From Minisyncoccota bacterium (GTDB lineage Bacteria; Patescibacteriota; Minisyncoccia; Phycocordibacterales; JAQTLZ01), in contig JAQTLZ010000002.1 in the NCBI GenBank assembly GCA_028714635.1, forward strand, positions 121,841 through 185,840: a stretch of 64,000 nucleotides of DNA. The letters run 5' to 3'. Numbering within the stretch: position 1 is the first letter of the stretch; every line of letters begins with the position of its first letter. A program made the translations under genes and the position numbers. The notes beneath the pieces are model-generated. The model worked only from the letters and a program-made list of their open reading frames with translations. It had not been told where the DNA came from and searched no databases. This document shows positions 7,873 through 59,685 of the stretch, in pieces.

Positions 7873-8958
7873 GTGAAGAATAAAAGTGTCACACACCCTT
7901 CGGAAAGGGTGGTTTTGAAGCGTGTCGCTTCTGTTGTGCTTCATGTTTACGCTCTCATCATGCTTATTGCGGTGGGGCTTAGCATGCAAGCAGTGCTTTC
8001 CGCTGTTTCAGCGTATCTTTTCATAAGATGCGTTATCGTCATCGTCCAGTTCGAGCGTGAAATAAGAAGAACTGACGAGGGCAAGGAGCGCAAGCATTTG
8101 AAAAAAGGAGACCGGGCAAAGCTCGCTCCCATTAACTGGGTGCGCAGTATCGGTTTCTTTAGCGTACACGTCGTCGGAATTGCAGGGCCTTTTGTGGTTG
8201 GCTGGAGTTGGTGGGCGACAGGCCTTGCGGTCTTTCTCTACTACCTCCGGATGTTTTTCATCACCGGTTTTTACCATCGGTATTTTAGCCACAAAAGTTT
8301 CAAGTCATCTCGTCGATTCGTTTGTATTATGGCGCTCTGCGGGGCAAGCGCTCTTCAGAGGTCCGCCACTTGGTGGGCAGCGGTGCATCGATGGCATCAT
8401 GCTCATTCGGATCAAGATGAGTCAGACAGGCACTCTCCAGTCGTTTGGAATATATTTGAGACGCATTTCGGCTGGCTCAACAGAAAGGGCGCAAAAATAT
8501 TCAAGCCTCTTTCTGATGAGTTCATGCAGGACCCAGTCTTTGTGAAAAGTCAGAAGTATCCATGGGTGTATCTCCCGGCCGTCATTATGGCCCTGGGGTG
8601 TTACATCTTGGGCGTGGTCCTTTCACACTGGTTCTATGATGTGAGCGGTGGGCAATTGCTTATCGCGTTCTTCACAAGCACGACAGCTCTCTATCACGGC
8701 ACAGCCTTTGTGAACTCTATCACGCACATGATGGGCGAACGGTCTCATGATACGAAGGACAACAGCGGAGATGTGTGGTGGCTCGTACTCTTCGTTCTCG
8801 GAGAGTGGAAGCATAATAAGCATCATCACGATCCGAGTGCCGCAAAAGAGAGTGAATGCGATCCGACCTATTGGGGGCTCCTTGTCCTCGAAAGGCTGGG
8901 GCTCATTTGGGATTTGATCCCGGAAAAGGAGGAAAGAGATAAGTTAAGGGCTGCTTGA
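7873..8958 (+). CDS. membrane fatty-acid (acyl-CoA/acyl-lipid delta-9 type) desaturase, high-GC cassette
   Basis: Three His boxes: HRYFSH, HRWHHAHSD and HNKHHH. GTG at 7873 is preceded by AGGAGGGG (7863-7870). The track start at 7840 is less likely. Confidence 0.8.
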   Translation: MKNKSVTHPSERVVLKRVASVVLHVYALIMLIAVGLSMQAVLSAVSAYLFIRCVIVIVQFEREIRRTDEGKERKHLKKGDRAKLAPINWVRSIGFFSVHVVGIAGPFVVGWSWWATGLAVFLYYLRMFFITGFYHRYFSHKSFKSSRRFVCIMALCGASALQRSATWWAAVHRWHHAHSDQDESDRHSPVVWNIFETHFGWLNRKGAKIFKPLSDEFMQDPVFVKSQKYPWVYLPAVIMALGCYILGVVLSHWFYDVSGGQLLIAFFTSTTALYHGTAFVNSITHMMGERSHDTKDNSGDVWWLVLFVLGEWKHNKHHHDPSAAKESECDPTYWGLLVLERLGLIWDLIPEKEERDKLRAA

Positions 8959-8996: not shown

Positions 8997-9632
8997 ATGC
9001 ATATTTTCATTACTATGCCGGAGAAGAAAAAGAAAAAATCGAAACATATCCACGTCAAAGATGTCTATTTTGCGGATATGGGCGGGAAGATGAAAAAGGG
9101 ATTTGGACGCTCTCTCGTTAGGAAAATTTTTCATCGGCCTGTTTTTAAGCGCGAAATTCATCACAAGACTTTCTCGGCAGATTTTAGCGCTACAAAACTT
9201 CGTTGGTACTCCAATCTTTTGAATATGTTCTACTTGAAGCTCGATGGTACCGCTTCCTGTTTTTTTACCGATGAAGGAACGCTCGTGATTATTTTCATGG
9301 TTTGGGGAGATCCCGATGCGGAAGAATTTTTCGAAATGCCGGAGATGAAAGGTGAATTTGTGGAGGATAGGGAAGCGACCCAGAAGAAAAAGAAAAAGAG
9401 TTTGAAGGTGGATAAGGATTCAGTGAAGGAGGAAGTGAAAGATGACGGGTATCACCTTCAATATGAAGAGACGTATAAAGATCACGGAAAAGAAGTGAGA
9501 ATGTTTGAGCATGTGATTTATTCCGGAATTGATAAGCTGGTTTTCCGGGCGATTGTCCCACCGAAAGTTTTGCCGGAGACTCTTGATGATATTTTGGCGA
9601 TTGCAAAGTCGCTTAGAATAAAGGTAACTTAA
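8997..9632 (+). CDS. hypothetical Lys-rich protein
   Basis: 211 aa with no recognisable motif. TATGAT at 8984-8989 lies 7 nt before the ATG (leaderless layout). Confidence 0.6.
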   Translation: MHIFITMPEKKKKKSKHIHVKDVYFADMGGKMKKGFGRSLVRKIFHRPVFKREIHHKTFSADFSATKLRWYSNLLNMFYLKLDGTASCFFTDEGTLVIIFMVWGDPDAEEFFEMPEMKGEFVEDREATQKKKKKSLKVDKDSVKEEVKDDGYHLQYEETYKDHGKEVRMFEHVIYSGIDKLVFRAIVPPKVLPETLDDILAIAKSLRIKVT

Positions 9633-9646
9633 TAAAAGACAGAGAA

Positions 9647-9689
9647 GCCCTGCCCGACGAAGTCGGGCAGGGCTGTTGCGTTTTTTTTT
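9647..9689 (+). terminator. rho-independent terminator
   Basis: Perfect 12-bp stem GCCCTGCCCGAC/GTCGGGCAGGGC with a GAA loop, then a T-run at 9681-9689. Confidence 0.8.
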
Positions 9690-9770
9690 CGTAACGAGTA
9701 GGGTAAAGAGCGGAAGGTAACGGCGAAAACCTTTAATTTCGCTACTGTTTTTTGTGGGAGGGCTAGTAAT

Positions 9771-10526
9771 ATGTCGCCTGTGAATAGTGATAGGGCATAC
9801 GTGCCAATTTACTTGGCACTGGACAAGAAGGACTGGGAGCAAGCATCTCCGCTCCTTCGCACGCTCGGCAATCGCATTGATGGAGTCAAGATCCATCGCA
9901 TCTGGGATGAGCTTGGCGCGAAATCTGTTTCGATGATTCGCGACCTTGGTGTCCCTGATGCCTGGGTTGATCTCAAGCTTTTTGATACGCCGGACACCGC
10001 GGCCGAACGCGCCGAACAGGTCAAGAAAGCTGGCGCCAAAATTTTGACCGTACACGCCAAGGGCGAAGTCGAAATGATGATGGCTGCGGTCAAGAACGGT
10101 CCGGAACTGGTTCTCGCCATCACGGAACTTACTTCGCTTACGGCGGAGCAGGTGGAAGTGGGCGGTGGCCTCACGCCTAAATCGGCCGTGCTTCATTGGG
10201 CGCGTGTTGCCAAGCTGGGGACTGTTGGTGGAGTCGTTACTTCCGCACTGGAAGTGGGCATGCTCTCGAAACGACCGGAACTCAAGGGTTTCGTTCTGGC
10301 TGTCCCGGGCACGCGCTCTGCGGGCGTGGACGTCAACGACCAGAAGCGTTCGGATACGCCTTACAACGCGGTGCTTGCGGGCGCAGGACTTATCGTCGCT
10401 GGTCGGCAGGTGACTGCCGCGGAAGACCCCGTTACCGCTATCGAAGCGCTTCGGGAAGAAGTCAACAAGGCGAGTGATGAGCGGCTTCGTCTCTTGCAGG
10501 AGATGGGAAAGAAGAAAGTCGCGTAA
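9771..10526 (+). CDS. pyrF: orotidine 5'-phosphate decarboxylase
   Basis: 251 aa. LALD, VDLKLFDTPDT (DxKxxD), ITELTS, VPGTR..NDQKR..TP and VAGRQVTAAEDP align with type-1 PyrF. GGGAGGG Shine-Dalgarno site lies 8 nt upstream. About 67% GC in a spot count. Confidence 0.85.
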   Translation: MSPVNSDRAYVPIYLALDKKDWEQASPLLRTLGNRIDGVKIHRIWDELGAKSVSMIRDLGVPDAWVDLKLFDTPDTAAERAEQVKKAGAKILTVHAKGEVEMMMAAVKNGPELVLAITELTSLTAEQVEVGGGLTPKSAVLHWARVAKLGTVGGVVTSALEVGMLSKRPELKGFVLAVPGTRSAGVDVNDQKRSDTPYNAVLAGAGLIVAGRQVTAAEDPVTAIEALREEVNKASDERLRLLQEMGKKKVA

Positions 10527-10539
10527 CAACCCGGCTCAC

Positions 10540-10570
10540 CCCGCCCATCGGCATTGTGCCGACGGGCGGG
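10540..10570 (+). promoter_or_regulatory. GC-rich intercistronic stem-loop between pyrF and the PRTase gene
   Basis: 14-position stem CCCGCCCATCGGCA/TGCCGACGGGCGGG (one mismatch) with a TTG loop and no U-tract. The track start at 10556 lies inside it. Confidence 0.55.
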
Positions 10571-10606
10571 AAAGCCGAAGACAGAAGACAAAGAAAGGAG
10601 AGTACC

Positions 10607-11431
10607 TTGCATAAGGACCAAATAAGTCAGACGGCGACGTCTCTGATCCATTTCGATCGAGACACGCCTGTGCTGGAAATCCTCCGTCTCTGTGGTGGAG
10701 TCTACCTCTGCCCTAAGGATGCGGCGGGGAAACGTGTCGGCCCGCTCGTTGGGTACGCTGGAAAAAGCCCGCGCCTGAAGACTAATCTCGTGGGGGATAT
10801 CTACGCGAATTTCTCCACGGCCGAGCGCTACTGGCACGTCATGGCTGAGTTCGCGCGGCGTCTCGTCGAGAACCCGAGATTCCAGGAGATTCTTCCGAGA
10901 CTGGACGGTCTCTGTGGGATGCCCATGGGCGGGATTACATATTCGTCGCACCTTGCGCGAGCATGTGATCGTACGGGGATCTTTCTGGAAAAGCTGGTCA
11001 CCGCGGTGGCGAACCCGATCGAGGGGACGAAGGAAGAGTCCATTCTGGTGGCCGGTCGCTGCGAGATTATCCTTGGAGCCAACTACGCGATCGTCGAGGA
11101 CGTTACCAATAACTTTTCCACCACGCTGAAAGCGATCGGTCTGATCGAAAAAGCTGGCGGAAAGGTCATTGCCATCTGCAGTATCCTGAACCGTTCACCG
11201 AAGCATACGTCTGACTTTCCGCTTCCGGACGGTCGGGAAATTCCGGTCATCTCGGCTTACCAAGAGCCGTTCCCGGAATTTGAGACGGATGACGAGGCCG
11301 TTGCGGCGGACATTGCCGCTGGAAACGTGATCTGGAAGCCAAAGGAAAATTGGCCCAAGCTCATGACCGCGATGGATGCTGCGCGTGAGACGGCGCTAGC
11401 GAATCAGTCGGACAAGCCGTCCGGTTCGTAA
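10607..11431 (+). CDS. type I phosphoribosyltransferase (orotate-PRTase-like)
   Basis: PRPP-binding loop YAIVEDVTNNFST. TTG at 10607 lies 6 nt after AAAGGAGAG. Substrate is not determinable by eye. Confidence 0.6.
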   Translation: MHKDQISQTATSLIHFDRDTPVLEILRLCGGVYLCPKDAAGKRVGPLVGYAGKSPRLKTNLVGDIYANFSTAERYWHVMAEFARRLVENPRFQEILPRLDGLCGMPMGGITYSSHLARACDRTGIFLEKLVTAVANPIEGTKEESILVAGRCEIILGANYAIVEDVTNNFSTTLKAIGLIEKAGGKVIAICSILNRSPKHTSDFPLPDGREIPVISAYQEPFPEFETDDEAVAADIAAGNVIWKPKENWPKLMTAMDAARETALANQSDKPSGS

Positions 11432-11459
11432 GTTGTATTCGAATCAATTGTTTCTTAGT

Positions 11460-11493
11460 GCAGAGTCGCTCGCCCGGACTCTGCGCTTTTTTA
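11460..11493 (+). terminator. rho-independent terminator
   Basis: GCAGAGTC(11460-11467)/GACTCTGC(11477-11484), then GCTTTTTTA. Confidence 0.75.
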
Positions 11494-11522
11494 TTTGTCT
11501 GAATTTTGTTACAGTTGCCAGC

Positions 11523-12434
11523 ATGAAATCAGAACTCATGAGTTTCCACACGAAAGACAAGCTTGAATTGCCGGGGCTTTTATATGAACCAGCACGAAAG
11601 AGTAATAAAGTAGCCATATTTCTTCATGGAAACGGCAATGGATCTGTTTTTAATAATCCTGTTTTGCAAAATACTATTGGTGACGCGCTGACGAAAAAGG
11701 GTATTGCTTATTTCCCATTCAACAATCGCGGGTCTGGGTATATCAGGAGTTTCAAAAAAATGGTGGACGGAAAGAAAGTCCGCCGGAATCTTGGCATGGC
11801 ATTTGAGCTTATTAAGGATTGTGTGATTGATATAGATGCCGCGCTTGCGGCCCTGCGCAAGCGCGGCTACTCCGAATTCTACTTACTCGGTGTTTCGACG
11901 GGAGCGAACAAAATCTGCGTCTACAACTACTACAAACCGAAAAATATTTTCTCAAAATTTATTTTACTCGCTCCAGGCGACGATGTCGGCGGGTATCTCG
12001 ATATGTGGGGTCCGCAGAAATTCGGCGCAATGCTTAAGATGTCGAAAGATAAGATCAAAGCAGGGAAGGGCGACGAGCTTGTTCCGCAAAATCTTTCCAG
12101 CTACAACTTTATTTCATTTAAATCTCTGTATGACATGATCAATCCCGATGGGAACTACAATGTTTTTCCGTATTTTGAAGTTTTGCATAATCTCGACCTA
12201 ACGAAAAAGAAAAAAATTTGGCGAGAATACCGGAGTCTCAAAAAACCAACCCTTGTTCTTATGCCAGGAAGGGACGAGTATTGTTATGGAAAGATAAAAG
12301 AAGTAGTGAAAATGCTCAAAGGAAATGGCAGCGCCACGAATTTCAATTTCAAAATTCTTCCCGGCTCATTGCACGGATTCTGGAAAAAAGAAAAAGAATT
12401 GGCAAAAATTCTCGCAGATTGGATTTTTGGGTAA
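11523..12434 (+). CDS. alpha/beta hydrolase
   Basis: FLHGNGNG oxyanion region and GVSTG nucleophile elbow (GxSxG). ATG at 11523 chosen because the track start at 11433 runs through the preceding terminator. Confidence 0.7.
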   Translation: MKSELMSFHTKDKLELPGLLYEPARKSNKVAIFLHGNGNGSVFNNPVLQNTIGDALTKKGIAYFPFNNRGSGYIRSFKKMVDGKKVRRNLGMAFELIKDCVIDIDAALAALRKRGYSEFYLLGVSTGANKICVYNYYKPKNIFSKFILLAPGDDVGGYLDMWGPQKFGAMLKMSKDKIKAGKGDELVPQNLSSYNFISFKSLYDMINPDGNYNVFPYFEVLHNLDLTKKKKIWREYRSLKKPTLVLMPGRDEYCYGKIKEVVKMLKGNGSATNFNFKILPGSLHGFWKKEKELAKILADWIFG

Positions 12435-12437
12435 AAA

Positions 12438-12482
12438 TAAAGCGCGCATAAACATCTGGGAACGTAAGGTGCGCGCTTTTTC
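12438..12482. terminator. bidirectional terminator hairpin
   Basis: AAAGCGCGCA(12438-12447)/TGCGCGCTTT(12470-12479) with A-run and T-run flanks, between convergent genes. Confidence 0.55.
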
Positions 12483-12613
12483 GGAGTTGTGGCCGCGGGG
12501 GCCTCTCGTCCGGTCATAATACGACTGCAAGCTGATCGAGTGGGACTCGATGGGTCTTGCATTTCTATAAAGTACGAAGTCGCGGCGCTCGTAGCTGGGC
12601 TGCTGTGGGTCAT

Positions 12614-13201
12614 TCAGGCCAGAACGACTTGACCGCGGCGGGCCGTCTCGATTGAGATCGGCTCGCACCTTTGCGTCGGCGCGTCTTCAGGCAACCTCGC
12701 ACAGGTGTCTTCCGGGGGCATCGGGATCGTCTCCACCTTGTAATTCTGGTGGAAGACCACCGATTTAGGCTGAATGATCGTGTCGTCGTCGATGGTGATT
12801 GTCGTCTTCGTGGCCGTGACCGACAACTTCGCATTTACGATCGAGATGAGGACCCAATGGAACTCTGCACCCTGTGGCATGAGAGCGATCCCTCGCTTCA
12901 TGATGGCGTCCAGTTCGGCGTGGAAGCTGGACTTTGCCACGATGAAGACCGGTGGCAACTCCTTCGGCTGAACGGCATTGGACGGCTGATGCGGGTTCCA
13001 GTGTGCGATTTCAACCTGGCACATCCTCGCTTCAGCGGGGACCGTTTCTCCGGCTGCGACCCGAATAGGATCCAGGGTGATGCTTCCCCCTGCACCGACG
13101 CCGATGTGGCGCTCTCCGAGCTTCTTTTGCAGCACTACTGCTTGCTGCGATACGGCTAACGATCGTTCCCGCATAACTGCCTGCCTTTCTCCCCATGTCA
13201 A
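12614..13201 (-). CDS. hypothetical protein (orphan, high-GC cassette); start may be the ATG at 13174
   Basis: 195-aa ORF with protein-like composition. The opposite-strand ORF 12671..13159 is Arg-rich and off-frame-like. Upstream on the minus strand are hairpin CCCCGT-CGAT-ACGGGG and GGGGAGAAAGG. Confidence 0.5.
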   Translation of the reverse strand: MTWGERQAVMRERSLAVSQQAVVLQKKLGERHIGVGAGGSITLDPIRVAAGETVPAEARMCQVEIAHWNPHQPSNAVQPKELPPVFIVAKSSFHAELDAIMKRGIALMPQGAEFHWVLISIVNAKLSVTATKTTITIDDDTIIQPKSVVFHQNYKVETIPMPPEDTCARLPEDAPTQRCEPISIETARRGQVVLA

Positions 13202-13301
13202 GCATGAGGTACTGTAATCTCCCCGTATCGACGGGGCAAACTTCTCTCATAATTCTATCTTTTTATCTCGCCTCACGCTATAGTAGGGGAAATAAATTTT
13301 T

Positions 13302-13889
13302 ATGCACACGCTTCTTGTTTTTGTTCTCCAGTGGAGTTACCTCGGTATTTTTGTCGTTGTCTTTGCCGAATCAGGATTTCTTCTGGGATTTTTTCTTCCT
13401 GGTGACTCACTTCTTTTTACCGCAGGACTTCTCGCTTCGCAGGGAATTTTTAATATTTGGATTCTCGTTCCTCTGATTGTCATCGGCGCAATTCTCGGAG
13501 ACAGTTTCGGTTATTACATGGGCAACAAATTAGGCCCGAAAATTTTCGTGCGGAAAGATTCATTTTTTTTCAAACAAGAGAATGTTGAAAAGACAAATCA
13601 TTTTTATGAAAAATATGGAGTGAAGACGATCATTCTCGCGCGATTCGTGCCGATTGTTCGCACTTTCGCTCCCATCTTTGCTGGTGTGGGTGGAATGAAA
13701 TACGCGACATTTCTTTCTTATAACGTGATTGGAGGATTTCTTTGGGGTGCTGGAGTGACTCTTGCCGGCTTTTTTCTCGGGCGAGCCTTCCCAGGAATTG
13801 AGCACTATCTCACTTATATTATTATCGCGATTATCCTCCTCTCTTTTGTTCCAATTCTCTTAGAGTATTTCAAGAAGCGAACAGCTTGA
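13302..13889 (+). CDS. DedA/SNARE-associated family membrane protein
   Basis: 195 aa. VFAESGFLLGFFLPGDSLLFTAG signature and multiple TM helices. Confidence 0.85.
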   Translation: MHTLLVFVLQWSYLGIFVVVFAESGFLLGFFLPGDSLLFTAGLLASQGIFNIWILVPLIVIGAILGDSFGYYMGNKLGPKIFVRKDSFFFKQENVEKTNHFYEKYGVKTIILARFVPIVRTFAPIFAGVGGMKYATFLSYNVIGGFLWGAGVTLAGFFLGRAFPGIEHYLTYIIIAIILLSFVPILLEYFKKRTA

Positions 13890-14946: not shown

Positions 14947-15813
14947 ATGATCCTTCTCGACGGAAAAAAAGTAAGTAAAGACAGGGCTCTTGAGCTGAAA
15001 GCGCAAGTTTCGGCTTTTAGAGTTGCTCCAACACTTGCCATTCTTCAAGTGGGGGATGATGAACGTTCGAGCGCCTATATCCGCCAGAAGAAACTTTTTG
15101 GAGAGAAAATTGGGTGCAAAGTGTTGCATGTTACATTTGAAAGCACTGTCTCGCATTCTGACATTATTGAAAAGGTAAGGGAATTGAATGCTGATATATC
15201 TGTCCATGGAATTATTTTGCAGTTGCCAATTCCTACTAATCTCGATTCGCGCTCTATTATTGAGGCGATTGATCCGAAGAAAGATGTAGACGGACTCCAC
15301 TCTGAAAACGCGAAAAAACTTACGGATGGAGATGTAAGCGGATTTATTCCTGCAACAGCCAAAGGGGTGATATCACTTCTTGATGCGTATAAAATTCCAA
15401 TTGCGGGAAAGAAGGCAACGGTAGTGGGACGCTCGGCTCTCGTGGGTACTCCGACAGCACTTTGTCTTACAAATCGCGGCGCGAATGTGACAGTGGTACA
15501 TCGCGCAACTGTGAATATTCCCGCAAAAACAAAACAAGCTGACATCCTTGTGGTTGCGGCAGGACATGCAAAGCTTATCGACGCTCGTCACGTTTCGGCA
15601 GGTCAGAGCGTTATTGATGTAGGAATCAATTTGGTGACGGGAGAAAAACTTGAGGATGAAATTCCCAAGAAAAAGTTGGTGGGTGATGTGGATTTTGATG
15701 AGGTGAAAGATATCGTTGGGGCTATTTCTCCGGTACCGGGAGGAGTGGGGCCGATGACTGTTCTTTCTTTGTTTGAAAATCTTATCCTCGCCTACGAAAG
15801 GGCTATTAATTAG
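14947..15813 (+). CDS. folD: bifunctional methylenetetrahydrofolate dehydrogenase/cyclohydrolase
   Basis: 288 aa with full-length FolD-like sequence (YIRQKKK-type N-terminus, GIILQLPIP, PVPGGVGPMT). TATAAT at 14933-14938 lies 8 nt before the ATG. Confidence 0.9.
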   Translation: MILLDGKKVSKDRALELKAQVSAFRVAPTLAILQVGDDERSSAYIRQKKLFGEKIGCKVLHVTFESTVSHSDIIEKVRELNADISVHGIILQLPIPTNLDSRSIIEAIDPKKDVDGLHSENAKKLTDGDVSGFIPATAKGVISLLDAYKIPIAGKKATVVGRSALVGTPTALCLTNRGANVTVVHRATVNIPAKTKQADILVVAAGHAKLIDARHVSAGQSVIDVGINLVTGEKLEDEIPKKKLVGDVDFDEVKDIVGAISPVPGGVGPMTVLSLFENLILAYERAIN

Positions 15814-22976: not shown

Positions 22977-23906
22977 TTACATAGTGAAACCAGATGCAAT
23001 CATCTCACTAAGTTTCTTGCGCAGTATCTCATAACCATCGGGGATTTTTCTTCCTTGTTTTGTCTCCAGCATATGTTTTATGGGTCTTATAAGACCTGGG
23101 AATTTCGATCTTCTCAAGAGATCTTTGTCCTTTTGACCACTATAGAATGAGAAAGTCTGCTCTGCGAAAAGATTTCCATAATCCCACAAGCCAGCAAAAT
23201 CTGCTGCCGGATCTGCGATGTCGATATCTGAAAAATCAATAATGCCGGTTAAGGCTCCTGTGGTTTGGTCAAAAAGTATATGTTTGTTGTTTAAATCATA
23301 ATGAATTATTTTTGGTTCAAAGTCGAAAGACAGACCGAGATATTCATTGAACTGGTGTTCAACCCAGTCAACCTCTTTGTTTGTCAATTCAGGAAAAACT
23401 TTCTCTCGTAACTCTTTTAAAATTGATTCGATATTTCGCTTTCCCCACCAGTGCCCTTTCGGATCAGCCTTGAAACCGCAGTTTCTCAATATCTCCGTCG
23501 GCGTCGAATGTAAATCCGAAATAAATTTTCCTAATGCTTTGGCGATATCAGTTTTTTGAATTTCACTTTGTGAATTGAAAAGTTCAGGTTGCATTTCAGT
23601 ACCAGTCAGCATTTGATATCCACCAAAGCTCCTGTCTTTAGAAAGATAGATATATTTGGGAATGGGTAGCGTTACTTTTGTGAGTAGGTGTTCTAGGAAT
23701 TTTACCTCCACTTGAAAACGTCGAATATAATTCTCCGATTTAGGAAAACGGAAAATGAGCCTATCGTCCAAGACGATCACATTGTTATCCCATCCATGAG
23801 TGATCAATCTGGAATTTTGAAACGAAACTTCGGGGAATTCCTTTTTTATAAGCTCCAGATATTCTTCTTTTGTTCTTTCCATAACTATTTTTCCAAAGTG
23901 ACCCAA
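22977..23906 (-). CDS. aminoglycoside/choline-kinase-like phosphotransferase (APH family)
   Basis: 309 aa. Brenner motif IIHYDLNNKHILF and IIDFSDIDIADP. Confidence 0.75.
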   Translation of the reverse strand: MGHFGKIVMERTKEEYLELIKKEFPEVSFQNSRLITHGWDNNVIVLDDRLIFRFPKSENYIRRFQVEVKFLEHLLTKVTLPIPKYIYLSKDRSFGGYQMLTGTEMQPELFNSQSEIQKTDIAKALGKFISDLHSTPTEILRNCGFKADPKGHWWGKRNIESILKELREKVFPELTNKEVDWVEHQFNEYLGLSFDFEPKIIHYDLNNKHILFDQTTGALTGIIDFSDIDIADPAADFAGLWDYGNLFAEQTFSFYSGQKDKDLLRRSKFPGLIRPIKHMLETKQGRKIPDGYEILRKKLSEMIASGFTM

Positions 23907-24376
23907 GAATATTTCAAATCGCCAAACATTTTTTCTTCTCGGAAAGTTTCTTTCTTGAATTCGTTTTCGTATTCTGGGAAAAATGTGTCGGCTGGGATTT
24001 CAGAGTGAATGATTGTGAGGTAGAGCCTGTCTGCGAAGGGGAGTGCTTGTTTGTAAATTTCTCCTCCACCGATGACGAAGATTTCGGCCGCGCCTCCTTC
24101 AGAGGCGCGGCCTTTTTCGAGCGCCTCTTCGATCGTATTTGTCACAATGCACCCTTCCGCTTTGAAATCTTTATTTCTGGTGACGATGATATTTGCACGG
24201 CCGGGGAGCGCCCGTCCTATGGACTCATACGTTTTTCGTCCCATGATAATGGGATGCCCCATCGTAAGCGCTTTAAACCGCTTCAAATCCTCTGGAATCC
24301 GCCACAGAAGCTTATTTTCCGTGCCGAGGCCACGGGTTTTCTCGCTTATTCCAGCTATCATGTTTACTTTTGACAT
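23885..24376 (-). CDS. folA: dihydrofolate reductase
   Basis: 163 aa. LLWRIPEDLKRFKALTMGHPIIMGRKTYESIG and VIGGGEIY motifs. Its 3' end overlaps the APH gene start by 22 nt. Confidence 0.9.
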   Translation of the reverse strand: MSKVNMIAGISEKTRGLGTENKLLWRIPEDLKRFKALTMGHPIIMGRKTYESIGRALPGRANIIVTRNKDFKAEGCIVTNTIEEALEKGRASEGGAAEIFVIGGGEIYKQALPFADRLYLTIIHSEIPADTFFPEYENEFKKETFREEKMFGDLKYSWVTLEK

Positions 24377-24446: not shown

Positions 24447-25040
24447 ATGTCAGAAGCTAATATAAAAAAGATCTTAAGCAATACTGCTGATCTGAAAACT
24501 CGTTTTATCGGTGATTACAAGGAATTAAAGAAAATCGTCGACACATTTAAAAAAATCGGTTATCGAATTGTTTTGACTCAAGGCGTGTATGACCTTATCC
24601 ACGAAGGCCACGCAGCTTATCTTGAAAAAGCTCGCTCTTACGGAGATCTTTTGATTGTCGGCGTTGATTCTGATGAACTCACGAAGCAGAGAAAGGGGCC
24701 GAATCGCCCTATAGTTCCGCAACAAGAAAGAATGAAGATGCTTGTTCATTTACGGCACGTTGATATTGTGACGATACGCGAAGCGCATCACAAGATCGGC
24801 GATCTTATCCGTCTCGTGAAGCCTGATGTGCTCATTGTTTCGAAAAGCACCAGCGATTTTACGAACAAAATGGTCAACGAATATACGCCGTATTGCAAAA
24901 AAATTGTCTCTCTTATGCCGCAGGCAACCACTTCGACATCAGCTCGCGTTAGAAATCTTACTCTCGAAGGAGCAGAGAAACTGGCCGGAGAGATCTCCAA
25001 ACTCACTGAAAATTTCATATTTAAGATCAGGCAAGCGTAA
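24447..25040 (+). CDS. cytidylyltransferase-like nucleotidyltransferase (TagD/RfaE-domain-II type)
   Basis: 197 aa. GVYDLIHEGHAAYL (HxGH) and GVDSDE. TATACT at 24434-24439 lies 7 nt before the ATG. Confidence 0.75.
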   Translation: MSEANIKKILSNTADLKTRFIGDYKELKKIVDTFKKIGYRIVLTQGVYDLIHEGHAAYLEKARSYGDLLIVGVDSDELTKQRKGPNRPIVPQQERMKMLVHLRHVDIVTIREAHHKIGDLIRLVKPDVLIVSKSTSDFTNKMVNEYTPYCKKIVSLMPQATTSTSARVRNLTLEGAEKLAGEISKLTENFIFKIRQA

Positions 25041-25903
25041 TGAAAAAGGTTCTCGTCGCTTTTGTTCCGGTTATCCATCTCGGGTATCTCGATTTTTTCA
25101 AGAAGCATAACTGTCCGCTCTATGTCATTGGGTCGGAATTTTATGCTGAATTTCCAAAGTTGGAACGAGATGTCCGCGCTCTTTCTCCGGAAATAATTTC
25201 TACGGCACTTAAAGCGATAAAAATTCCGAGAGAAGTAGTTCTTCTTACCAAAAAGGATCTTGGAGATTTGAAAAAAGTTTCAATTGTCATGCCGGATGAT
25301 GAGCTCTCGAGGGAATTTGCAGAAAAGTATCTGAAGGGCACGAAAATTGATTTCGAATCAATCTTTTTGCGCTGGAATAAAATTATTACTACGTCGGAAT
25401 TTACAGTGCCTCCCAATCGAACTATTTCCTACGAAACTTTCGATAGAGAAATGTTTCCAAAGGTAAGAAAGGAAGCAAAAAAAAGTTCTGATTGGTGGAG
25501 GCAAAACGGCGCCATCCTTCTTCGAGACGGGAAAATCCTTGTGGAGAGCCATAATCGTCATCTTCCAACGGATTTAAGCATGGATGTTTTCGGCGATCCG
25601 CGGAGCAATTTTGATGCAGGGGAGAAGCTTACGAAAAAAATCGGAGGAATGGAGATAACTCCGAATGATCTCTCCACCGTCATCCATGCAGAAGCATCTG
25701 TTATTGGGATTGCAGCGAAAAAAGGGATTCCTCTCGAAGGGACATCGCTTTATTGCACCACTTTTCCTTGCCCCACTTGCGCGAAATTAGTTGCCGAAGC
25801 CGGAATTAAAAAAGTTTTCTATGAAAAAGGGTATTCAATTCTCGATGCCGAAAGAATTCTCCAGGCTTTCGGGATTGAAATAATTTTAGTAAAAGAAAAG
25901 TAA
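25040..25903 (+). CDS. dCMP deaminase with an N-terminal extra domain of about 150 aa
   Basis: C-terminal VIHAEASVI..TTFPCPTCAKLV zinc motifs (HAE / PCxxC). The N-terminal VPVIHLGY resembles a degenerate HxGH fold. TAATG overlap with the upstream gene. Confidence 0.8.
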   Translation: MKKVLVAFVPVIHLGYLDFFKKHNCPLYVIGSEFYAEFPKLERDVRALSPEIISTALKAIKIPREVVLLTKKDLGDLKKVSIVMPDDELSREFAEKYLKGTKIDFESIFLRWNKIITTSEFTVPPNRTISYETFDREMFPKVRKEAKKSSDWWRQNGAILLRDGKILVESHNRHLPTDLSMDVFGDPRSNFDAGEKLTKKIGGMEITPNDLSTVIHAEASVIGIAAKKGIPLEGTSLYCTTFPCPTCAKLVAEAGIKKVFYEKGYSILDAERILQAFGIEIILVKEK

Positions 25904-26369: not shown

Positions 26370-27281
26370 TTAAACTGGGGTCGGAATAATCATCGCTGGG
26401 TGAGGCTCGTAGTCGGAGAGCGTGAAATGTTCAGGTTTGAAATCAAAAATGTCTTTTATATTTGGGTCGAGTGTTACTGTTGGGAGTCGCTTTGGTTCTC
26501 GTTTCAAAAGTTCCTCGACATAGCTGTATTGGCTTTCGTAAATATGGGCGTCAGAAAAAGTGTGTACCAATTCTTTCATGGTGTAGCCGAGAAGCTGTGC
26601 CACCATCATACCGAATCCTGCATACTGAATGATGTTAAATGGCACTCCGACAGGGAAGTCCGCGCTTCTTTGGAAGTGATGAATAACAATTTCTTTTGTT
26701 TCGGGGAAAGCAAGAATGTGAATCCAGCCGTGGCATGGTGCAACCACTACTTTTCTTTTGAGGGTACTGTGCTGGATGGCGTATTGCGGGATCCATGGGC
26801 TTATAAAATGGGTTCGCAGGTATGGGCGTTCTTTCAGCTGTTTAATTACGTTTTCAATCTGGTTAAAGGGTGTTCCTTCTTTGGTAGGGAAGCTTGCCCA
26901 TGCCGCTCCGTATGAACCGTCTCCCAAATCTCCTTCGGGAAGTCCGAAGATGTCGCACTTTTCTTTGGTTACCCATCGTCCCCACCATTTACAGCCGAAT
27001 TTTTTCAACTCCTCATTGGTGCGAGCACCGTGAAGGAAAGCAATGTGTTCTGCGAGAGCTCCCTGGAAAAATTTTCCAGACAAGTCGCGTTCGGTGATAA
27101 CAGGAAAGCCGTTCTCGATAGGGTAGCGAAGCTGGACTCCCACGAGCATTTTCGCTTTTTCTCCCATTTTTCCGGTAGGAAGCCGGCTATGAATAGGAAC
27201 AATCTCGCGCCCCTCTTTCATTATCCTCCTTAGAATATCTTGATACTGGCTATCAGGAGTTCGGTCTTTGAGTGGTTTCAT
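26370..27281 (-). CDS. thyA: thymidylate synthase (ThyA family, somewhat divergent)
   Basis: VVAPCHGW catalytic Cys, QRSADFPVGVPFNIIQY and SDAHIY motifs. ATG at 27281 chosen (MKPLKDRTPDSQYQDILRRI). The upstream 33 codons of the track ORF look non-coding. Confidence 0.8.
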   Translation of the reverse strand: MKPLKDRTPDSQYQDILRRIMKEGREIVPIHSRLPTGKMGEKAKMLVGVQLRYPIENGFPVITERDLSGKFFQGALAEHIAFLHGARTNEELKKFGCKWWGRWVTKEKCDIFGLPEGDLGDGSYGAAWASFPTKEGTPFNQIENVIKQLKERPYLRTHFISPWIPQYAIQHSTLKRKVVVAPCHGWIHILAFPETKEIVIHHFQRSADFPVGVPFNIIQYAGFGMMVAQLLGYTMKELVHTFSDAHIYESQYSYVEELLKREPKRLPTVTLDPNIKDIFDFKPEHFTLSDYEPHPAMIIPTPV

Positions 27282-27345
27282 TGCAAGTATTATAGAGGGT
27301 TTTAAAAAGAAAAGAAAATCGCCACAATGGGTGCCCTCGCTATAC

Positions 27346-27373
27346 TTGACAATATAATCATATATGTTAAAAT
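27346..27373 (+). promoter_or_regulatory. sigma70-like promoter of the high-GC protease cassette
   Basis: TTGACA (27346-27351), 16-nt spacer, TAAAAT (27368-27373). Followed by hairpin TTCCGT..ACGGAA (27384-27403) and Shine-Dalgarno site GGAGGT (27424-27429). Confidence 0.6.
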
Positions 27374-27434
27374 AATACAAGATTCCGTCCTTTCAAAACG
27401 GAACATTTTGGGGAAACAAACGTGGAGGTGGAGC

Positions 27435-28396: not shown

Positions 28397-29668
28397 ATGA
28401 CTCAAAATTTAAAATTCATAAAGAAACAAGATCCGGCGGTCTATAAAGCGATAGTGGGGGAGGAAAAACGGGAAGCGGAAGGGCTTGAGCTCATTCCTTC
28501 GGAAAACTATGTTTCGCAGGCTGTGCTTGAAGCGAATGGCTCTGTTTTCACCAATAAATATTCTGAAGGATATATCGGGCGAAGATATTATGGCGGACAA
28601 GAATTTACTGATACAGTAGAGAAAATTGCTATCGAAAGAGCTTGCAAACTTTTTGGCGCAAAATATGCGAATGTTCAGACGCATTCTGGCGCACCGGCAA
28701 ACATCGGTCTCTATTTTGCTCTCATGAATCCGGGCGATACGATTCTCGGAATGGATCTCTCACACGGAGGGCACCTCACTCACGGACATCCTGTGACTTC
28801 GATTTCGAAAATTTTCAAATTCGTCCGCTACCAGATGAAAAATATCGAGACAGGTGAGATTGATTACGTGGGACTTCGGGAGACTGCGCTCAAAGAAAAA
28901 CCGAAAGTCATTCTCGCCGGCTATTCTGCATATCCGCGTGAGCTTGATTATGCGAAGTTTGTAGAAATTGCACGCGAAGTCGGCGCAGTCTGTGTGATGG
29001 ATATCGCTCATATCGCAGGACTCATTGCAGGCAAGGCGGTCAAGAATCCTTTTGATTATGGATTTGATGTGATGACGAGTACGACACACAAAACTTTGCG
29101 TGGTCCTCGCGGCGGTTTGATTTTGGTACGCGAGAATGAAGAGCTCGCAAAGAAAATTGATAAATCGGTTTTCCCCGGGCTTCAAGGTGGACCGCACATG
29201 CATACTGTCGCAGCAAAAGCAGTAGCGTTTGGTGAAGCACTGAAACCCGCTTTCAAAAAATATGCCGAGCAGATTCTCAAAAACGCGAAAGCAATGGAGG
29301 CGGTTTTCAAGCGAGAAAAAATTCGAATGATTACAGGTGGAACTTCAAATCATCTCATTCTCGCCGATGTGTGGGGCTCGCTCGACGTTTCTGGTAAAGA
29401 AGCGCAAACAGTACTCGATGAAGTGGGAATTACGCTCAATATGAATATGATCGCGGGGGATACAAGAAAGCCAATGGACCCATCAGGAATTCGCTTTGGT
29501 ACGCCAGCAATCACAACACGAGGATTTAAAGAAAAAGAATGTGCACGTGTCGCCGAATTGATTATTGAAACTCTAAAAAATAAAAGTGACGAAAAGAAAA
29601 AGAAAGCAATTCACACGGAAATAATAAAACTGGCAAAAAAGTTTCCGATACCAGATACATTCGTATGA
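28397..29668 (+). CDS. glyA: serine hydroxymethyltransferase
   Basis: 423 aa. LELIPSENY, GGHLTHG and TSTTHKTLRGPRGG (PLP-Lys) motifs. Confidence 0.95.
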   Translation: MTQNLKFIKKQDPAVYKAIVGEEKREAEGLELIPSENYVSQAVLEANGSVFTNKYSEGYIGRRYYGGQEFTDTVEKIAIERACKLFGAKYANVQTHSGAPANIGLYFALMNPGDTILGMDLSHGGHLTHGHPVTSISKIFKFVRYQMKNIETGEIDYVGLRETALKEKPKVILAGYSAYPRELDYAKFVEIAREVGAVCVMDIAHIAGLIAGKAVKNPFDYGFDVMTSTTHKTLRGPRGGLILVRENEELAKKIDKSVFPGLQGGPHMHTVAAKAVAFGEALKPAFKKYAEQILKNAKAMEAVFKREKIRMITGGTSNHLILADVWGSLDVSGKEAQTVLDEVGITLNMNMIAGDTRKPMDPSGIRFGTPAITTRGFKEKECARVAELIIETLKNKSDEKKKKAIHTEIIKLAKKFPIPDTFV

Positions 29669-30048: not shown

Positions 30049-30723
30049 ATGAACAAACTCGGACGACTTATCATAATCGAAGGGCTTGATGGGGCAGGGA
30101 AAGCTGTTCAGACTAAGCTTCTTACCGAAGCTCTGCAAAAAGCTGGTAAAGAAGTGACGCTTTTTGATTTTCCTCGCTACACCACTTCGATGTTTGGAAA
30201 GTTGACCGGCGAAGCGCTTCAGGGCATGTACGGGGATTTCCGGAATATGTCCCCATTTCTTTCTTCGCTTCCGTTCGTGCTTGACCGAGCGACTGCAAAA
30301 AATGATATTGAGAAAGCGCTCGAGAAAGGAGATGTTATTTGCAATCGCTATACGCCTTCGAATCTCGCCTATCAATCTGCGAAACTCCCACCATCGCAGA
30401 GGAAAAAATTTGTAGACTTTTTAGAGAAAGCGGAATACGGGGAAATTGGAATTCCCAAGCCGGATGTTGTTTTCTATCTCTCCGTTCCCGTTGAGACCGC
30501 ACTTGGGCTCAATGCTCAAAAGCCAAAACGGGTGTATTTGAAAAAAGCTGGAGATAAAGACCAGCATGAAGACGACGAAATGTATCAAAAACAAGTAATT
30601 GAAGTTTATATGTCTTTCGCAAAAGAGAAAAAGAACTGGCATATCGTAGAATGTCTGAAGGGAGGCAAGCTTCTTTCACCGGAAGAAATTCATCTGAAAA
30701 TAATGGCAACACTCGCAAATTAA
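30049..30723 (+). CDS. tmk: thymidylate kinase
   Basis: 224 aa. P-loop IIIEGLDGAGKAV. TGCTAGTAT -10 box ends 7 nt before the ATG. Confidence 0.85.
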   Translation: MNKLGRLIIIEGLDGAGKAVQTKLLTEALQKAGKEVTLFDFPRYTTSMFGKLTGEALQGMYGDFRNMSPFLSSLPFVLDRATAKNDIEKALEKGDVICNRYTPSNLAYQSAKLPPSQRKKFVDFLEKAEYGEIGIPKPDVVFYLSVPVETALGLNAQKPKRVYLKKAGDKDQHEDDEMYQKQVIEVYMSFAKEKKNWHIVECLKGGKLLSPEEIHLKIMATLAN

Positions 30724-30738
30724 AGGTATCATCTAGCA

Positions 30739-31329
30739 ATGTCAGACCAAAATCTTCGATTCTTATTTGAAATAGCGACGCTCCGAAATCTCGACCGCTC
30801 ATGGAGGCAGTATATCGGTATGGATGTTGAAAGTGTTCTAGAACATATTGTTCGTGTGATGTTTCTCGCGCTTCTTATCGCCCGTAAAGAAGGGGTGAAG
30901 AATGAAGAGAAAATTATGAAAATGGTGCTTGTTCACGATCTTGCGGAAACGAGAACGAGCGATCATATGTATGTTCATAAGGTATATGTGAAAGCGGACG
31001 AGAAAAAGGCCGCCGACCATCTCTTTTTCGGAACGCTTTTTGGAGATTTGCGAAAAGATATCCTTCATGAGTATGAAGAGCGGAAATCTATTGAGGCGAA
31101 AATTGTAAAAGATGCCGATAATCTTGAATGCGATATGGAACTCAAAGAATTGGAAGCGAGGGGGTCTACAGTGCGAAAGAAACTCGCTTCTGGGAGGAGA
31201 CTGGTGCGAGACAAGAAACTCTACACCAAAACCGCACGGAAGCTTTGGGATGCGATTCAAAAAGCAGATGTGGATGAGTGGCATCTTACGAGTAATAAGT
31301 GGCTTAAGATTCCGAATGCTGGGAAATAA
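30739..31329 (+). CDS. HD-domain phosphohydrolase (YfbR-like 5'-deoxynucleotidase type)
   Basis: 196 aa. H..(V)HDLAETRTSD HD motif. Confidence 0.7.
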   Translation: MSDQNLRFLFEIATLRNLDRSWRQYIGMDVESVLEHIVRVMFLALLIARKEGVKNEEKIMKMVLVHDLAETRTSDHMYVHKVYVKADEKKAADHLFFGTLFGDLRKDILHEYEERKSIEAKIVKDADNLECDMELKELEARGSTVRKKLASGRRLVRDKKLYTKTARKLWDAIQKADVDEWHLTSNKWLKIPNAGK

Positions 31330-33045: not shown

Positions 33046-33378
33046 ATGACTGAAGCAATTCCAGGACAAAATAGTGGGAATCCAAGATCGGCGGATAGAC
33101 AGGAGAAAATTAACGAGATGATTTTGGCACGCAATGGGGTGTTAGGATTAGTGAAAACTCCAAAGCAGAGAGAGATTGTTCGAGAAGAGAATCAGCAATT
33201 TATTATTCAACTCAGGAAAAACAACCCAGGGCGCGACACCCTTGCAAAATATCAAGCATGGCAGATTTTCTCAAGTGGCACAGATATCCAGGATGAGAAA
33301 GCTCCGGAGCTTGATTTCCCGGGAGAAGATTCTCTTATTGAATTTTATAAAAGACTTGAAGAAAAGTTGAAATCATGA
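33046..33378 (+). CDS. hypothetical protein
   Basis: 110 aa. TAATAT at 33034-33039 lies 6 nt before the ATG. ATGA overlap with maf. Confidence 0.55.
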   Translation: MTEAIPGQNSGNPRSADRQEKINEMILARNGVLGLVKTPKQREIVREENQQFIIQLRKNNPGRDTLAKYQAWQIFSSGTDIQDEKAPELDFPGEDSLIEFYKRLEEKLKS

Positions 33379-33953
33379 GAAAAATAATTCTCGCATCAGG
33401 TTCTCCGCGCCGGAAAGAAATTTTAGGAAGGCTCGGCATTCCTTTTGAGGTCGTGCAAAGCGATTTCCAGGAGTTTATTGATCCCAAAATATCTCCGGGT
33501 GCGTTAGCAGAAAAGCTCGCGATCGGAAAAGCAAAAGCGGTCGCTTTCAAATACCCCGACGCAATTATTATCGGAGCGGATACTGTCGTAGCGCTTCATG
33601 GCGAAGCGATGGGGAAACCCAAGACGCCAGAGGAGGCTGTGGCTATGCTCACGCGCCTTTCGGGAGAAACCCATTCGGTATTTACAGGCTTTACCATCAT
33701 GAGTACAAAGACAGGGAGATCAATCACTGACGTTTGTGAATCAAAAGTTACTTTCAAACAGCTTGATCCCGCTAGTATTGAAAAATATGTTATAAGCGGA
33801 GAACCATTAGAGATGGCTGGAGGCTACGCGATACAGAGTGGAGCGAAAGATTTCGTGGAAAAATACGAAGGAGATTACAATAACATTGTCGGACTTCCTC
33901 TTACTCTCGTGCGGAACGCTCTCAAGATGTTTGATGTCAGTGTGTCCTCATAA
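33375..33953 (+). CDS. maf: Maf-like nucleoside triphosphate pyrophosphatase
   Basis: 192 aa. ILASGSPRRKEIL, GADTVV and GGYAIQ motifs. Confidence 0.9.
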   Translation: MRKIILASGSPRRKEILGRLGIPFEVVQSDFQEFIDPKISPGALAEKLAIGKAKAVAFKYPDAIIIGADTVVALHGEAMGKPKTPEEAVAMLTRLSGETHSVFTGFTIMSTKTGRSITDVCESKVTFKQLDPASIEKYVISGEPLEMAGGYAIQSGAKDFVEKYEGDYNNIVGLPLTLVRNALKMFDVSVSS

Positions 33954-59526: not shown

Positions 59527-59685
59527 ATGTGGAAATACTTCGATAAGACCTTTTTTAAGTTTCTGATAGGTTTTTTGGTCATTCTGACCGCCAGTTTTCT
59601 CCTCCTCATTTTCACCAACGCCTATAAGATAAAAATCGAAGCGCAATCCCAATTCGCCAATCCTCCTTTAGTGCAAGATCAATGA
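59527..59685 (+). CDS. small membrane protein (52 aa), hypothetical
   Basis: The ATG at 59527 lies 6 nt after TGGTACACT (59512-59520). One TM helix. ATGA overlap with the next gene. Confidence 0.5.
   Translation: MWKYFDKTFFKFLIGFLVILTASFLLLIFTNAYKIKIEAQSQFANPPLVQDQ

Follow-up and report, generated by a model that had tools for sequence, protein, structure and literature searches.

The last two steps of uridine 5′-monophosphate (UMP) synthesis are carried out by orotate phosphoribosyltransferase (OPRT, PyrE) and orotidine 5′-monophosphate (OMP) decarboxylase (ODCase, PyrF). In the bifunctional UMP synthases (eukaryotic UMPS, the Leishmania ODC-OPRT of PDB entry 3qw4 and bacterial PRK05500) the two are joined in one polypeptide. 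The stand-alone OPRTs of concern here are the canonical PyrE (E. coli, Salmonella, yeast and human; TIGR00336) and the Thermus/Helicobacter type (TIGR01367), of which HP1257 of Helicobacter pylori (4paw) and the Mycobacterium tuberculosis enzyme (5hkf) have been solved. In E. coli, pyrE is preceded by the rph-pyrE attenuator, where a GC-rich hairpin lies a few nucleotides past the stop codon of the upstream open reading frame (ORF) and can be masked by the terminating ribosome. Here we consider a two-gene unit, pyrF followed by a gene for a type I phosphoribosyltransferase (PRT), in a 64,000-nt stretch of a Minisyncoccota bacterium (assembly GCA_028714635.1, contig JAQTLZ010000002.1, positions 121,841 to 185,840), hereafter called the window. 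We give a probability of about 0.8 to the view that pyrF and the PRT gene make up a bicistronic operon, pyrF-pyrE, serving these two steps, the PRT being a divergent PyrE. The second protein would convert orotate and phosphoribosyl pyrophosphate (PRPP) to OMP, which PyrF would then decarboxylate to UMP.

The decarboxylase and its partner transferase

The product of the first gene matches the Pfam OMPdecase family (PF00215; E 4e-32, 112 bits, cutoff 27) and scores 100 bits against TIGR01740, above the curated cutoff of 92.3. Its catalytic motifs are intact by comparison with solved ODCases: LALD, DLKLFDTPDT (the Asp-x-Lys-x-x-Asp signature), the phosphate gripper PGTR, and VAGR. The protein is predicted to be a bona fide OMP decarboxylase, PyrF of type 1. 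Its best relatives, apart from itself, are 53% identical and, where named, come from Patescibacteria; beside the nearest one that is on a long contig (P0124) there is no PRT gene. The first-pass annotation had seen in pyrF and the adjacent type I PRT a bicistronic unit, and this is borne out by the ORFs, by the Pfam and TIGR01740 matches of PyrF and by the fold of the PRT.

The second protein is 100% identical to one listed at NCBI as 'hypothetical protein PHS53_02065', and the region matches contig JAQTSW010000023.1 of a Candidatus Pacebacteria metagenome-assembled genome (MAG), GCA_028711105.1. A search of 5.8 billion proteins returned 147 relatives, mostly about 250 aa long, the named ones from Patescibacteria and the best one, other than itself, 54% identical. 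When a profile of the family was run against 1.84 billion representatives, 305 clusters were found at E<=1e-30, a number that rises to 440 at 1e-10 and to 1592 at 1e-3, and these counts set the family apart from ordinary PyrE. At 50% identity it makes up about 300 clusters, mostly of Patescibacteria.

The hallmark of the family is its PRPP-binding loop. The loop YAIVEDVTNNFST that had been read from the sequence is indeed present at residues 160-172, with the hydrophobic run of the type I PRT motif and its two acidic residues (E164-D165), and with N168-N169-F170 in place of the T-T/A-G part. We call the family NNF for this replacement. EDVxNNFSTT is near-invariant where other PRTs have EDxxTTGxT: the loop is invariant in an alignment of 24 sequences and, over 260 members, E-D-V-x-N-N-F-S-T-T is conserved at 90-99% and a second motif, N-R-S, at 98-99%; active-site residues as a whole are conserved at 95-99%.

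Profile searches place the family nearest to OPRTs. TIGR01367 (pyrE_Therm) is the best model for all 24 members tested, PRK02277 is matched by 21 and TIGR00336 by 18, whereas fewer members match the adenine and xanthine PRT models, and those that do match them more weakly. PRK05500 is matched, again weakly, by only two. In the PDB, H. pylori PyrE (4paw) is matched by the family profile with an E-value of 3.7e-11 and human OPRT with one of 1.5e-6. The motifs that align with those of OPRTs are DIYANF with PIYIDL, PMGG with AIGG, EDVxNNFST with EDIITTGKS, and LNRS with LDRE or ANRG. The alignment with the H. pylori enzyme is free of gaps around the PRPP loop (EDIITTGKS), and the hood motif, xGG, the acidic pair and the Arg of (N/D)R line up.

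The fold points the same way. The AlphaFold model of the window PRT has a mean predicted local distance difference test score (pLDDT) of 93.4, falling below 50 at residues 1-9. Foldseek matched it to 441 PDB chains at E<=1e-3; the 50 listed are without exception PRT-fold chains. The top 26 are mostly OPRTs (4paw and those of B. anthracis, Burkholderia, Streptococcus, yeast, human, A. pernix and the Leishmania UMP synthase); the first adenine PRT chain (2dy0) comes at rank 16, and such chains prevail further down the list. The predicted structure has a type I PRT fold closest to that of OPRTs. A comparison with PRT families that the first-pass annotation had called for was made with the profiles above and puts OPRTs closest, the Thermus/Helicobacter type first.

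The latter type is the best match by both profile and fold, and it shares with the window protein the Glu-Asp pair, xGG instead of YKG, (A/L)NR(G/S) with its conserved Arg, the architecture of hood and core, and the link to pyrF. Unlike it, the NNF family has N-N-F-S-T-T instead of T-T-G-K-S-A in the 5′-phosphate loop, a flexible loop with about 12 more residues, a conserved N-terminal hairpin (CPKDxxGKRxGPLVGYAG) and a C-terminal extension of about 60 residues (QDDPAVAADIAAGNVxWKPK), and its members score 30-60 bits against a cutoff of 150. With canonical PyrE the window PRT has in common the type I fold with an N-terminal hood, an SPxYxD/N-like motif (here DIYANF) and an aligned LDR-like Arg; it differs in lacking the Tyr-Lys (YKG) motif that binds pyrophosphate and in its loop signature, and is only 12-17% identical.

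Several of these residues can be given likely roles. R196, the Arg of NRS, is 99% conserved and in sequence alignment lines up with LDRE of human OPRT and ANRG of HP1257; by analogy with Arg156 of Salmonella OPRT, it presumably contacts orotate. In the flexible loop, K129 (EKK) is invariant and R151-H152 at least 90% conserved in the 24-sequence alignment, the figures being 92-96% among the 260 members, where the numbering is offset; the loop is about 12 residues longer, and these residues are candidate equivalents of Lys103/Lys98. In the M. tuberculosis OPRT, PRPP has its ribose hydroxyls bound by the Glu-Asp pair, while its pyrophosphate is bound by basic residues from the flexible loop (PMC5430920). 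The window PRT keeps this pair, as E164-D165.

Some observations weigh against a PyrE. The window PRT has no Pfam match at E 0.01, PF00156 included, though some of its relatives do, and it stays below the curated cutoffs of both TIGR01367 (42 bits against 150) and TIGR00336 (16.6 against 106.8). No NNF-family member tested reaches a curated PyrE cutoff, the best E-value against TIGR01367 being 2.6e-17. Identity to solved OPRTs is low, as noted. The equivalent of Lys73 of E. coli OPRT is absent (PMGG), as it is from H. pylori PyrE (AIGG). With N-N-F replacing the canonical T-T/A-G of the 5′-phosphate loop, the geometry of PRPP binding is only predicted, and N-N-F at this place is not known from any characterised PRT. 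Searches of the literature on pyrE, pyrF or orotate in Patescibacteria or the candidate phyla radiation (CPR), and on HP1257, gave nothing specific to the NNF family and no enzymology of it. We nevertheless prefer to see in the N-N-F loop, the longer flexible loop and the extra terminal segments variations on OPRT chemistry, which would not amount to a new reaction.

Gene context and the source of orotate

Relatives of the PRT were collected by a scan of one genome per species (147 found, 80 loci kept). An ODCase is adjacent or fused to the PRT in 69 of the 80 loci, and it is of three types. The ODCase gene is directly beside the PRT gene in 64 (in 37 a type-2 gene upstream, in 22 a type-1 gene upstream, in 5 a gene downstream), three loci have in-frame ODCase-PRT fusions (Pfam confirms both domains in two), and two have a third, divergent ODCase-like partner with the motif YDHQKAGNDIP. 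Thus the constant partner of the PRT is a function, OMP decarboxylation, and not one gene lineage, as is expected if the PRT makes OMP. Proteins of the third type are about 245 aa long, have YDHQKAGNDIP instead of DxKxxD, match Pfam OMPdecase weakly and are encoded directly upstream of NNF-type PRT genes (L087 174-902, L044 7202-7948 and L051 509-1234).

Fusion is also seen among the cluster representatives. At least eight clusters, with representatives of 488-573 aa, are OMPdecase-Pribosyltran fusions by Pfam. In this the family resembles the bifunctional UMP synthases, the ODCase coming first as in Leishmania and PRK05500. The difference is that the two genes are separate in the window, and that the PRT half of the family's fusions is of the NNF type and not the canonical one.

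Other genes of the pathway can be close by. P0002, the nearest relative of the window PRT, is in a DHO_dh-OMPdecase-PRT cluster. Four-gene clusters in the order pyrD, pyrC, pyrF (type 2) and PRT are found in the Alphaproteobacteria Lichenihabitans and Lichenibacterium and in a few other non-CPR MAGs. Since the carriers include high-GC Alphaproteobacteria, the NNF family is not confined to Patescibacteria. The cluster, with its pyrD-like first gene, lies at 5057-8717 of L035 (Lichenihabitans) and also at L017, L019, L020, L029, L039, L041, L043, L046, L055, L056 and L061; among its hosts are Lichenibacterium minor, which is an isolate (L043), and a MAG that bears the label Janthinobacterium (L055). 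Within the CPR, pyrD and/or pyrC are near the PRT at L065, L066, L078, L024, L007, L027, L021, L068 and L033. Several CPR loci have pyrD or a pyrC above its equivalog cutoff. A bona fide pyrC among the neighbors scores 309.6 bits (TIGR00856, cutoff 293); the PyrD partners in PRT operons are divergent (81 bits against a cutoff of 269). Most Patescibacteria loci have only the pyrF-PRT pair within +/-8 kb.

Where would the orotate come from? The first-pass annotation noted that no other pyr gene is in the window, and the 64 kb indeed hold no pyrB, pyrC, pyrD or carAB; none was found in the 16-kb syntenic stretch of a sister genome either. Together with the solitary pairs just mentioned, and with reports that Patescibacteria generally lack nucleotide synthesis (PMC11809585), this fits a salvage shortcut, in which a genome without pyrB/C/D and carAB would make UMP with the pair from orotate taken up from outside. 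On the other hand, 64 kb cover little of a genome, over which pyr genes are often scattered. In published CPR genomes one finds anything between no pyrimidine pathway at all and a near-complete one, the latter in one Parcubacterium (PMC11809585; PMC5220378). Because of that Parcubacterium, and because several relatives have pyrD and/or pyrC adjacent (pyrD adjoins the nearest relative of the PRT, and about ten CPR loci have one or both), salvage is not the default reading, and we regard it as possible but with the odds somewhat against it.

The window also carries a set of thymidylate and one-carbon genes: FolD (14947-15813), DHFR (23885-24376, minus strand), a 287-aa dCMP deaminase (25040-25903), ThyA (26370-27380, minus strand), SHMT (28397-29668), thymidylate kinase (30049-30723), an HD nucleotidase-like protein (30739-31329) and Maf (33375-33953). 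The organism invests in the conversion of pyrimidine deoxynucleotides.

A conserved scaffold with exchanged genes

The features of the unit are listed in Table 1.

Table 1. Features of the pyrF-PRT unit, numbered by position in the window
Feature	Position	Strand	Details and basis
Intrinsic terminator ending the upstream gene and marking the left edge of the unit	9646..9689	+	stem 9646-9674, T-run 9681-9689
Leader (5′ untranslated region) of pyrF	9690..9770	+	Shine-Dalgarno-like GGGAGGG at 9756-9762; alignment with the sister genome
pyrF, orotidine-5′-phosphate decarboxylase type 1	9771..10526	+	251 aa; Pfam, TIGR01740, catalytic motifs
Intercistronic GC-rich hairpin	10532..10577	+	core 10540-10570; no U-run
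Shine-Dalgarno AAGGAG of the PRT gene	10595..10600	+	6 nt before TTG 10607; read from the sequence
pyrE-like, putative orotate phosphoribosyltransferase, NNF-loop family	10607..11431	+	274 aa; sequence, fold, gene context, fusions
PRPP-binding loop YAIVEDVTNNFST of the PRT	11084..11122	+	residues 160-172; E164, D165, N168, N169, F170
Intrinsic terminator closing the unit	11457..11494	+	stem-loop 11457-11487 and U-run

Strong terminators had been proposed at both ends, and both hold up: each is a GC-rich stem-loop followed by a U-run, and each is far more stable than shuffled sequences. On the left a 13-bp stem is followed by nine T (fold of 9640-9695, dG -32.7, z -6.9 against shuffles); on the right an 11-bp stem with a 9-nt loop (dG -18.7, z -4.5) is followed by TTTTTTATTT. 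A leader attenuator upstream of pyrF was considered and rejected, the hairpin at 9722-9743 being no better than shuffles (z -0.3).

The start codons need comment. The GGGAGGG motif is 8 nt upstream of ATG 9771, which favors the 251-aa form of PyrF over the 237-aa form called at NCBI. The PRT ORF as originally listed starts at GTG 10556 (291 aa), a codon within the intercistronic hairpin, whereas two independent callers, those of NCBI and Logan, use TTG 10607 (274 aa). The latter is the supported start. The 'unusually long N-terminal region' ascribed to the PRT was therefore in part an artefact of the wrong start codon; what remains of it is the conserved hood domain of the family and about 15 extra residues.

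The stem-loop noticed between the genes at 10540-10570 is real and extends to 10532-10577, its core having one A/C mismatch (dG -34.9, z -5.5 against shuffles). It begins 6 nt past the pyrF stop codon, ends 18 nt upstream of the PRT Shine-Dalgarno sequence, and has no T-run on either strand. Since the terminators of this genome have U-runs, the hairpin is probably not one of them. The geometry is like that of the E. coli rph-pyrE attenuator; unlike the attenuator, the window hairpin lacks a U-run. Most likely it is an element of mRNA stability or processing, or a recombination junction.

The hairpin is rare. At E<=1, Rfam gave two chance-level matches in 9400-11700 and no PyrR site, and the hairpin arm has no significant further copies in the window. 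Of 89 loci, none but those of the same genome and of the sister has the hairpin. A metagenome scan with its 20-nt core gave 34 matches, all but two from one unrelated gut-bacterial sequence, and none with the hairpin context or near pyrF or PRT. Nor is a hairpin a general feature of the module: the median z of 41 intergenic spacers is 0, and L007 alone is comparable. At that locus, a type-2 pyrF/PRT pair in an unrelated MAG, the spacer (7896-8001) has a GC-rich hairpin without a U-run, GGCGGCGGGGCGCGACGCGCGACCCGCCGCC, the only other such locus of the 41.

The most telling comparison is with the sister genome, a Pacebacteria MAG (GCA_028711065.1, contig L089) found through a homolog of the flanking DUF1749 hydrolase that is 88% identical. 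The contig is syntenic with the window over DUF2914, PIF1, beta-lactamase, fatty acid desaturase, a hypothetical protein, the hydrolase, VTT, PAP2, FolD and SIMPL genes, whose proteins are 88-97% and DNA 83-87% identical. Between the hypothetical gene and the hydrolase gene, however, the sister has a type-2 pyrF (325 aa, TIGR02127, 168 bits) and then the shared hairpin. A 226-aa PRT follows, with a canonical loop (VEDVMTSGAT) and 82.9 bits over the full pyrE_Therm model, TIGR01367. After it come a terminator, a shortened 210-aa relic of the NNF type, and the shared terminator. The relic (9278-9910) is catalytically degenerate (E164D, D165N, one Asn lost, GG to ES, R196C) and is closest to the subclade of the window PRT (40.6% identical to P0002, 37.5% to the window PRT). 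That it is a simple recent pseudogene of the window PRT is doubtful, its DNA identity being about 47% against about 85% for the flanks.

Both coding sequences are non-orthologous between the two genomes, and the hairpin is conserved though both its neighbors differ. DNA homology runs up to the Shine-Dalgarno sequence at about 9763, is seen again over 47 nt (89%) that begin with the pyrF stop codon and take in the hairpin, and sets in once more precisely at 11457, the base of the closing terminator. The upstream terminator is kept with a compensatory T/A to C/G change in its stem, and the tail of the closing terminator (11482-11511) occurs twice in the sister, after both PRT genes. As homology stops at the Shine-Dalgarno sequence, returns at the hairpin and resumes at the terminator, both coding sequences have been replaced precisely within a conserved scaffold. 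By this comparison the coding parts of the cassette have turned over by gene-precise (xenologous) replacement between sister Pacebacteria, the exchange going gene by gene within the scaffold of leader, hairpin and terminator.

The first-pass annotation had noted the high GC of the unit and thought that it may have been acquired horizontally. The unit is GC-rich as described, 57.4% against 43.4% in the rest of the window (43.8% overall); the spot at 10141-10200, put at about 67%, measures 66.7%, and the top ten 600-nt windows by GC all begin within 9851-10301. pyrF has 57.4% GC with a third-position GC fraction (GC3) of 0.62, and PRT 57.0% and 0.67, when the genes of the window average 0.449 (sd 0.079). 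The unit is not alone in this, as an ORF at 12614-13201 on the minus strand is equally GC-rich (58.5%). That ORF (186-195 aa, GC3 0.71) forms a second GC-rich island at 12423-13322, has no Pfam or NCBIfam match, and is an insertion not present in the sister, whose hydrolase and VTT genes are separated by 10 nt.

The excess, however, is family-wide. In low-GC Patescibacteria (71 loci) the GC content of the pyrF-PRT module, GC3 included, exceeds that of its flanks, the median difference in GC being +5.7 points and the largest +21, and the PRT has the top GC3 of its neighborhood in 21 of 50 low-GC loci. Regression of gene GC on flank GC has a slope of 0.70 and an intercept of 0.20 (r 0.87), the 57% of the window lying about 6 points above the line. 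The different cassette of the sister is equally GC-rich. Excesses of +22 and +14 points are recorded at L088 and L087. GC content as proof of a recent transfer was accordingly rejected: the composition check suggested for a donor lineage gave no specific sign of recent acquisition. For turnover by horizontal exchange, GC is the weak argument and the sister comparison the strong one; the earlier suggestion of horizontal acquisition is supported, as horizontal origin or turnover, by that comparison and not by GC.

Should one nevertheless think that the island came from a high-GC donor in a single recent transfer of both genes together? Its GC is 13 points above the flanks and its GC3 is 2-3 sd above the window genes, the best relatives of both genes are 53-54% identical as against 88% for the flanking hydrolase, and the site holds different genes in the sister. 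But the composition is that of the family in low-GC hosts and of the sister's replacement as well. pyrF and PRT appear, moreover, to have separate histories: relatives of the PRT pair with ODCases of types 2 and 3, and a close relative of pyrF is without a PRT. The conserved hairpin between the genes suggests exchange gene by gene and not as one block. We consider a one-off transfer unlikely.

About as unlikely, in our estimate, is a bolder proposal with two parts: that NNF proteins, which standard annotation labels 'hypothetical' or as generic phosphoribosyltransferases, are a distinct OPRT class or an enzyme of altered substrate, the pyrimidine capacity of Patescibacteria being underestimated, and that in Pacebacteria the pyrF and pyrE coding sequences are exchangeable cassettes swapped one gene at a time at conserved hairpin and terminator junctions, which would hint at site-directed or hairpin-guided exchange and not at ordinary homologous recombination.

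The first-pass annotation had left the substrate of the PRT uncertain. The enzyme could use something other than orotate or PRPP, such as another pyrimidine-like acid or another phosphosugar donor, with the decarboxylase acting on the product. The replacement of the phosphate-binding T-T-G by a near-invariant N-N-F, the scores far under PyrE cutoffs and the divergent PyrD partners in the operons (81 bits against 269) are in keeping with this, and adenine phosphopsicosyltransferase (7f06), a PRT fold with another sugar donor, is among the weak PDB matches. Against it, the genes paired with the PRT are genuine pyrF that score above curated cutoffs and belong to three types able to stand in for one another, along with a bona fide pyrC, and the Arg of NRS and the hood motif align with OPRTs. 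A more canonical PyrE holds the site in the sister while the NNF copy there decays, which is consistent with both PRTs doing the same job and with functional redundancy. Profile, fold, fusions, pyrD and pyrC neighbors and this shared position narrow the choice toward orotate, and another substrate is improbable. That the PRT is an inactive RNA- or DNA-binding regulator controlling pyrF through the hairpin is hardly credible. In its favor, PyrR and PurR are PRT-fold regulators, PurR models give weak matches, and a strong hairpin between the genes is kept in the sister. Against it, the active-site residues are conserved at 95-99%, ODCase fusions exist, most other loci lack the hairpin, no PyrR-binding site or other Rfam match was found, and the same hairpin precedes a different PRT in the sister.

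Significance of the locus

Two further loci of the window are recorded for completeness. A 1156-aa class I aminoacyl-tRNA synthetase (34514-37984; Ile/Leu/Val/Met type, PF00133) carries a histidine phosphatase domain (His_Phos_1) at residues 504-666, between the two halves of its catalytic domain. A 1080-aa protein with beta-helix and LCAT/PGAP1-like lipase domains (59682-62924) lies beside a 647-aa protein (57400-59343) with a peptidoglycan-binding domain and an unusually low GC3 of 0.31.

To return to the probable pyrF-pyrE operon, the picture is one of ordinary function, carried out by an unusual, uncharacterised PyrE variant at a locus that has clearly undergone gene-precise replacement. 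Metabolic reconstructions that depend on cutoffs of hidden Markov models would score the pyrE step as missing here, as the PRT is a 'hypothetical protein' at NCBI and is without a Pfam match. Once the NNF family is recognised, the pyrimidine capacity inferred for many reduced genomes is altered. By placing a near-invariant Asn-Asn-Phe in a motif otherwise highly conserved among type I PRTs, nature has set up an experiment in PRPP binding. Finally, the sister comparison provides a clean case, from an uncultivated lineage, in which single genes have undergone xenologous replacement in situ, inside a regulatory scaffold that is conserved.

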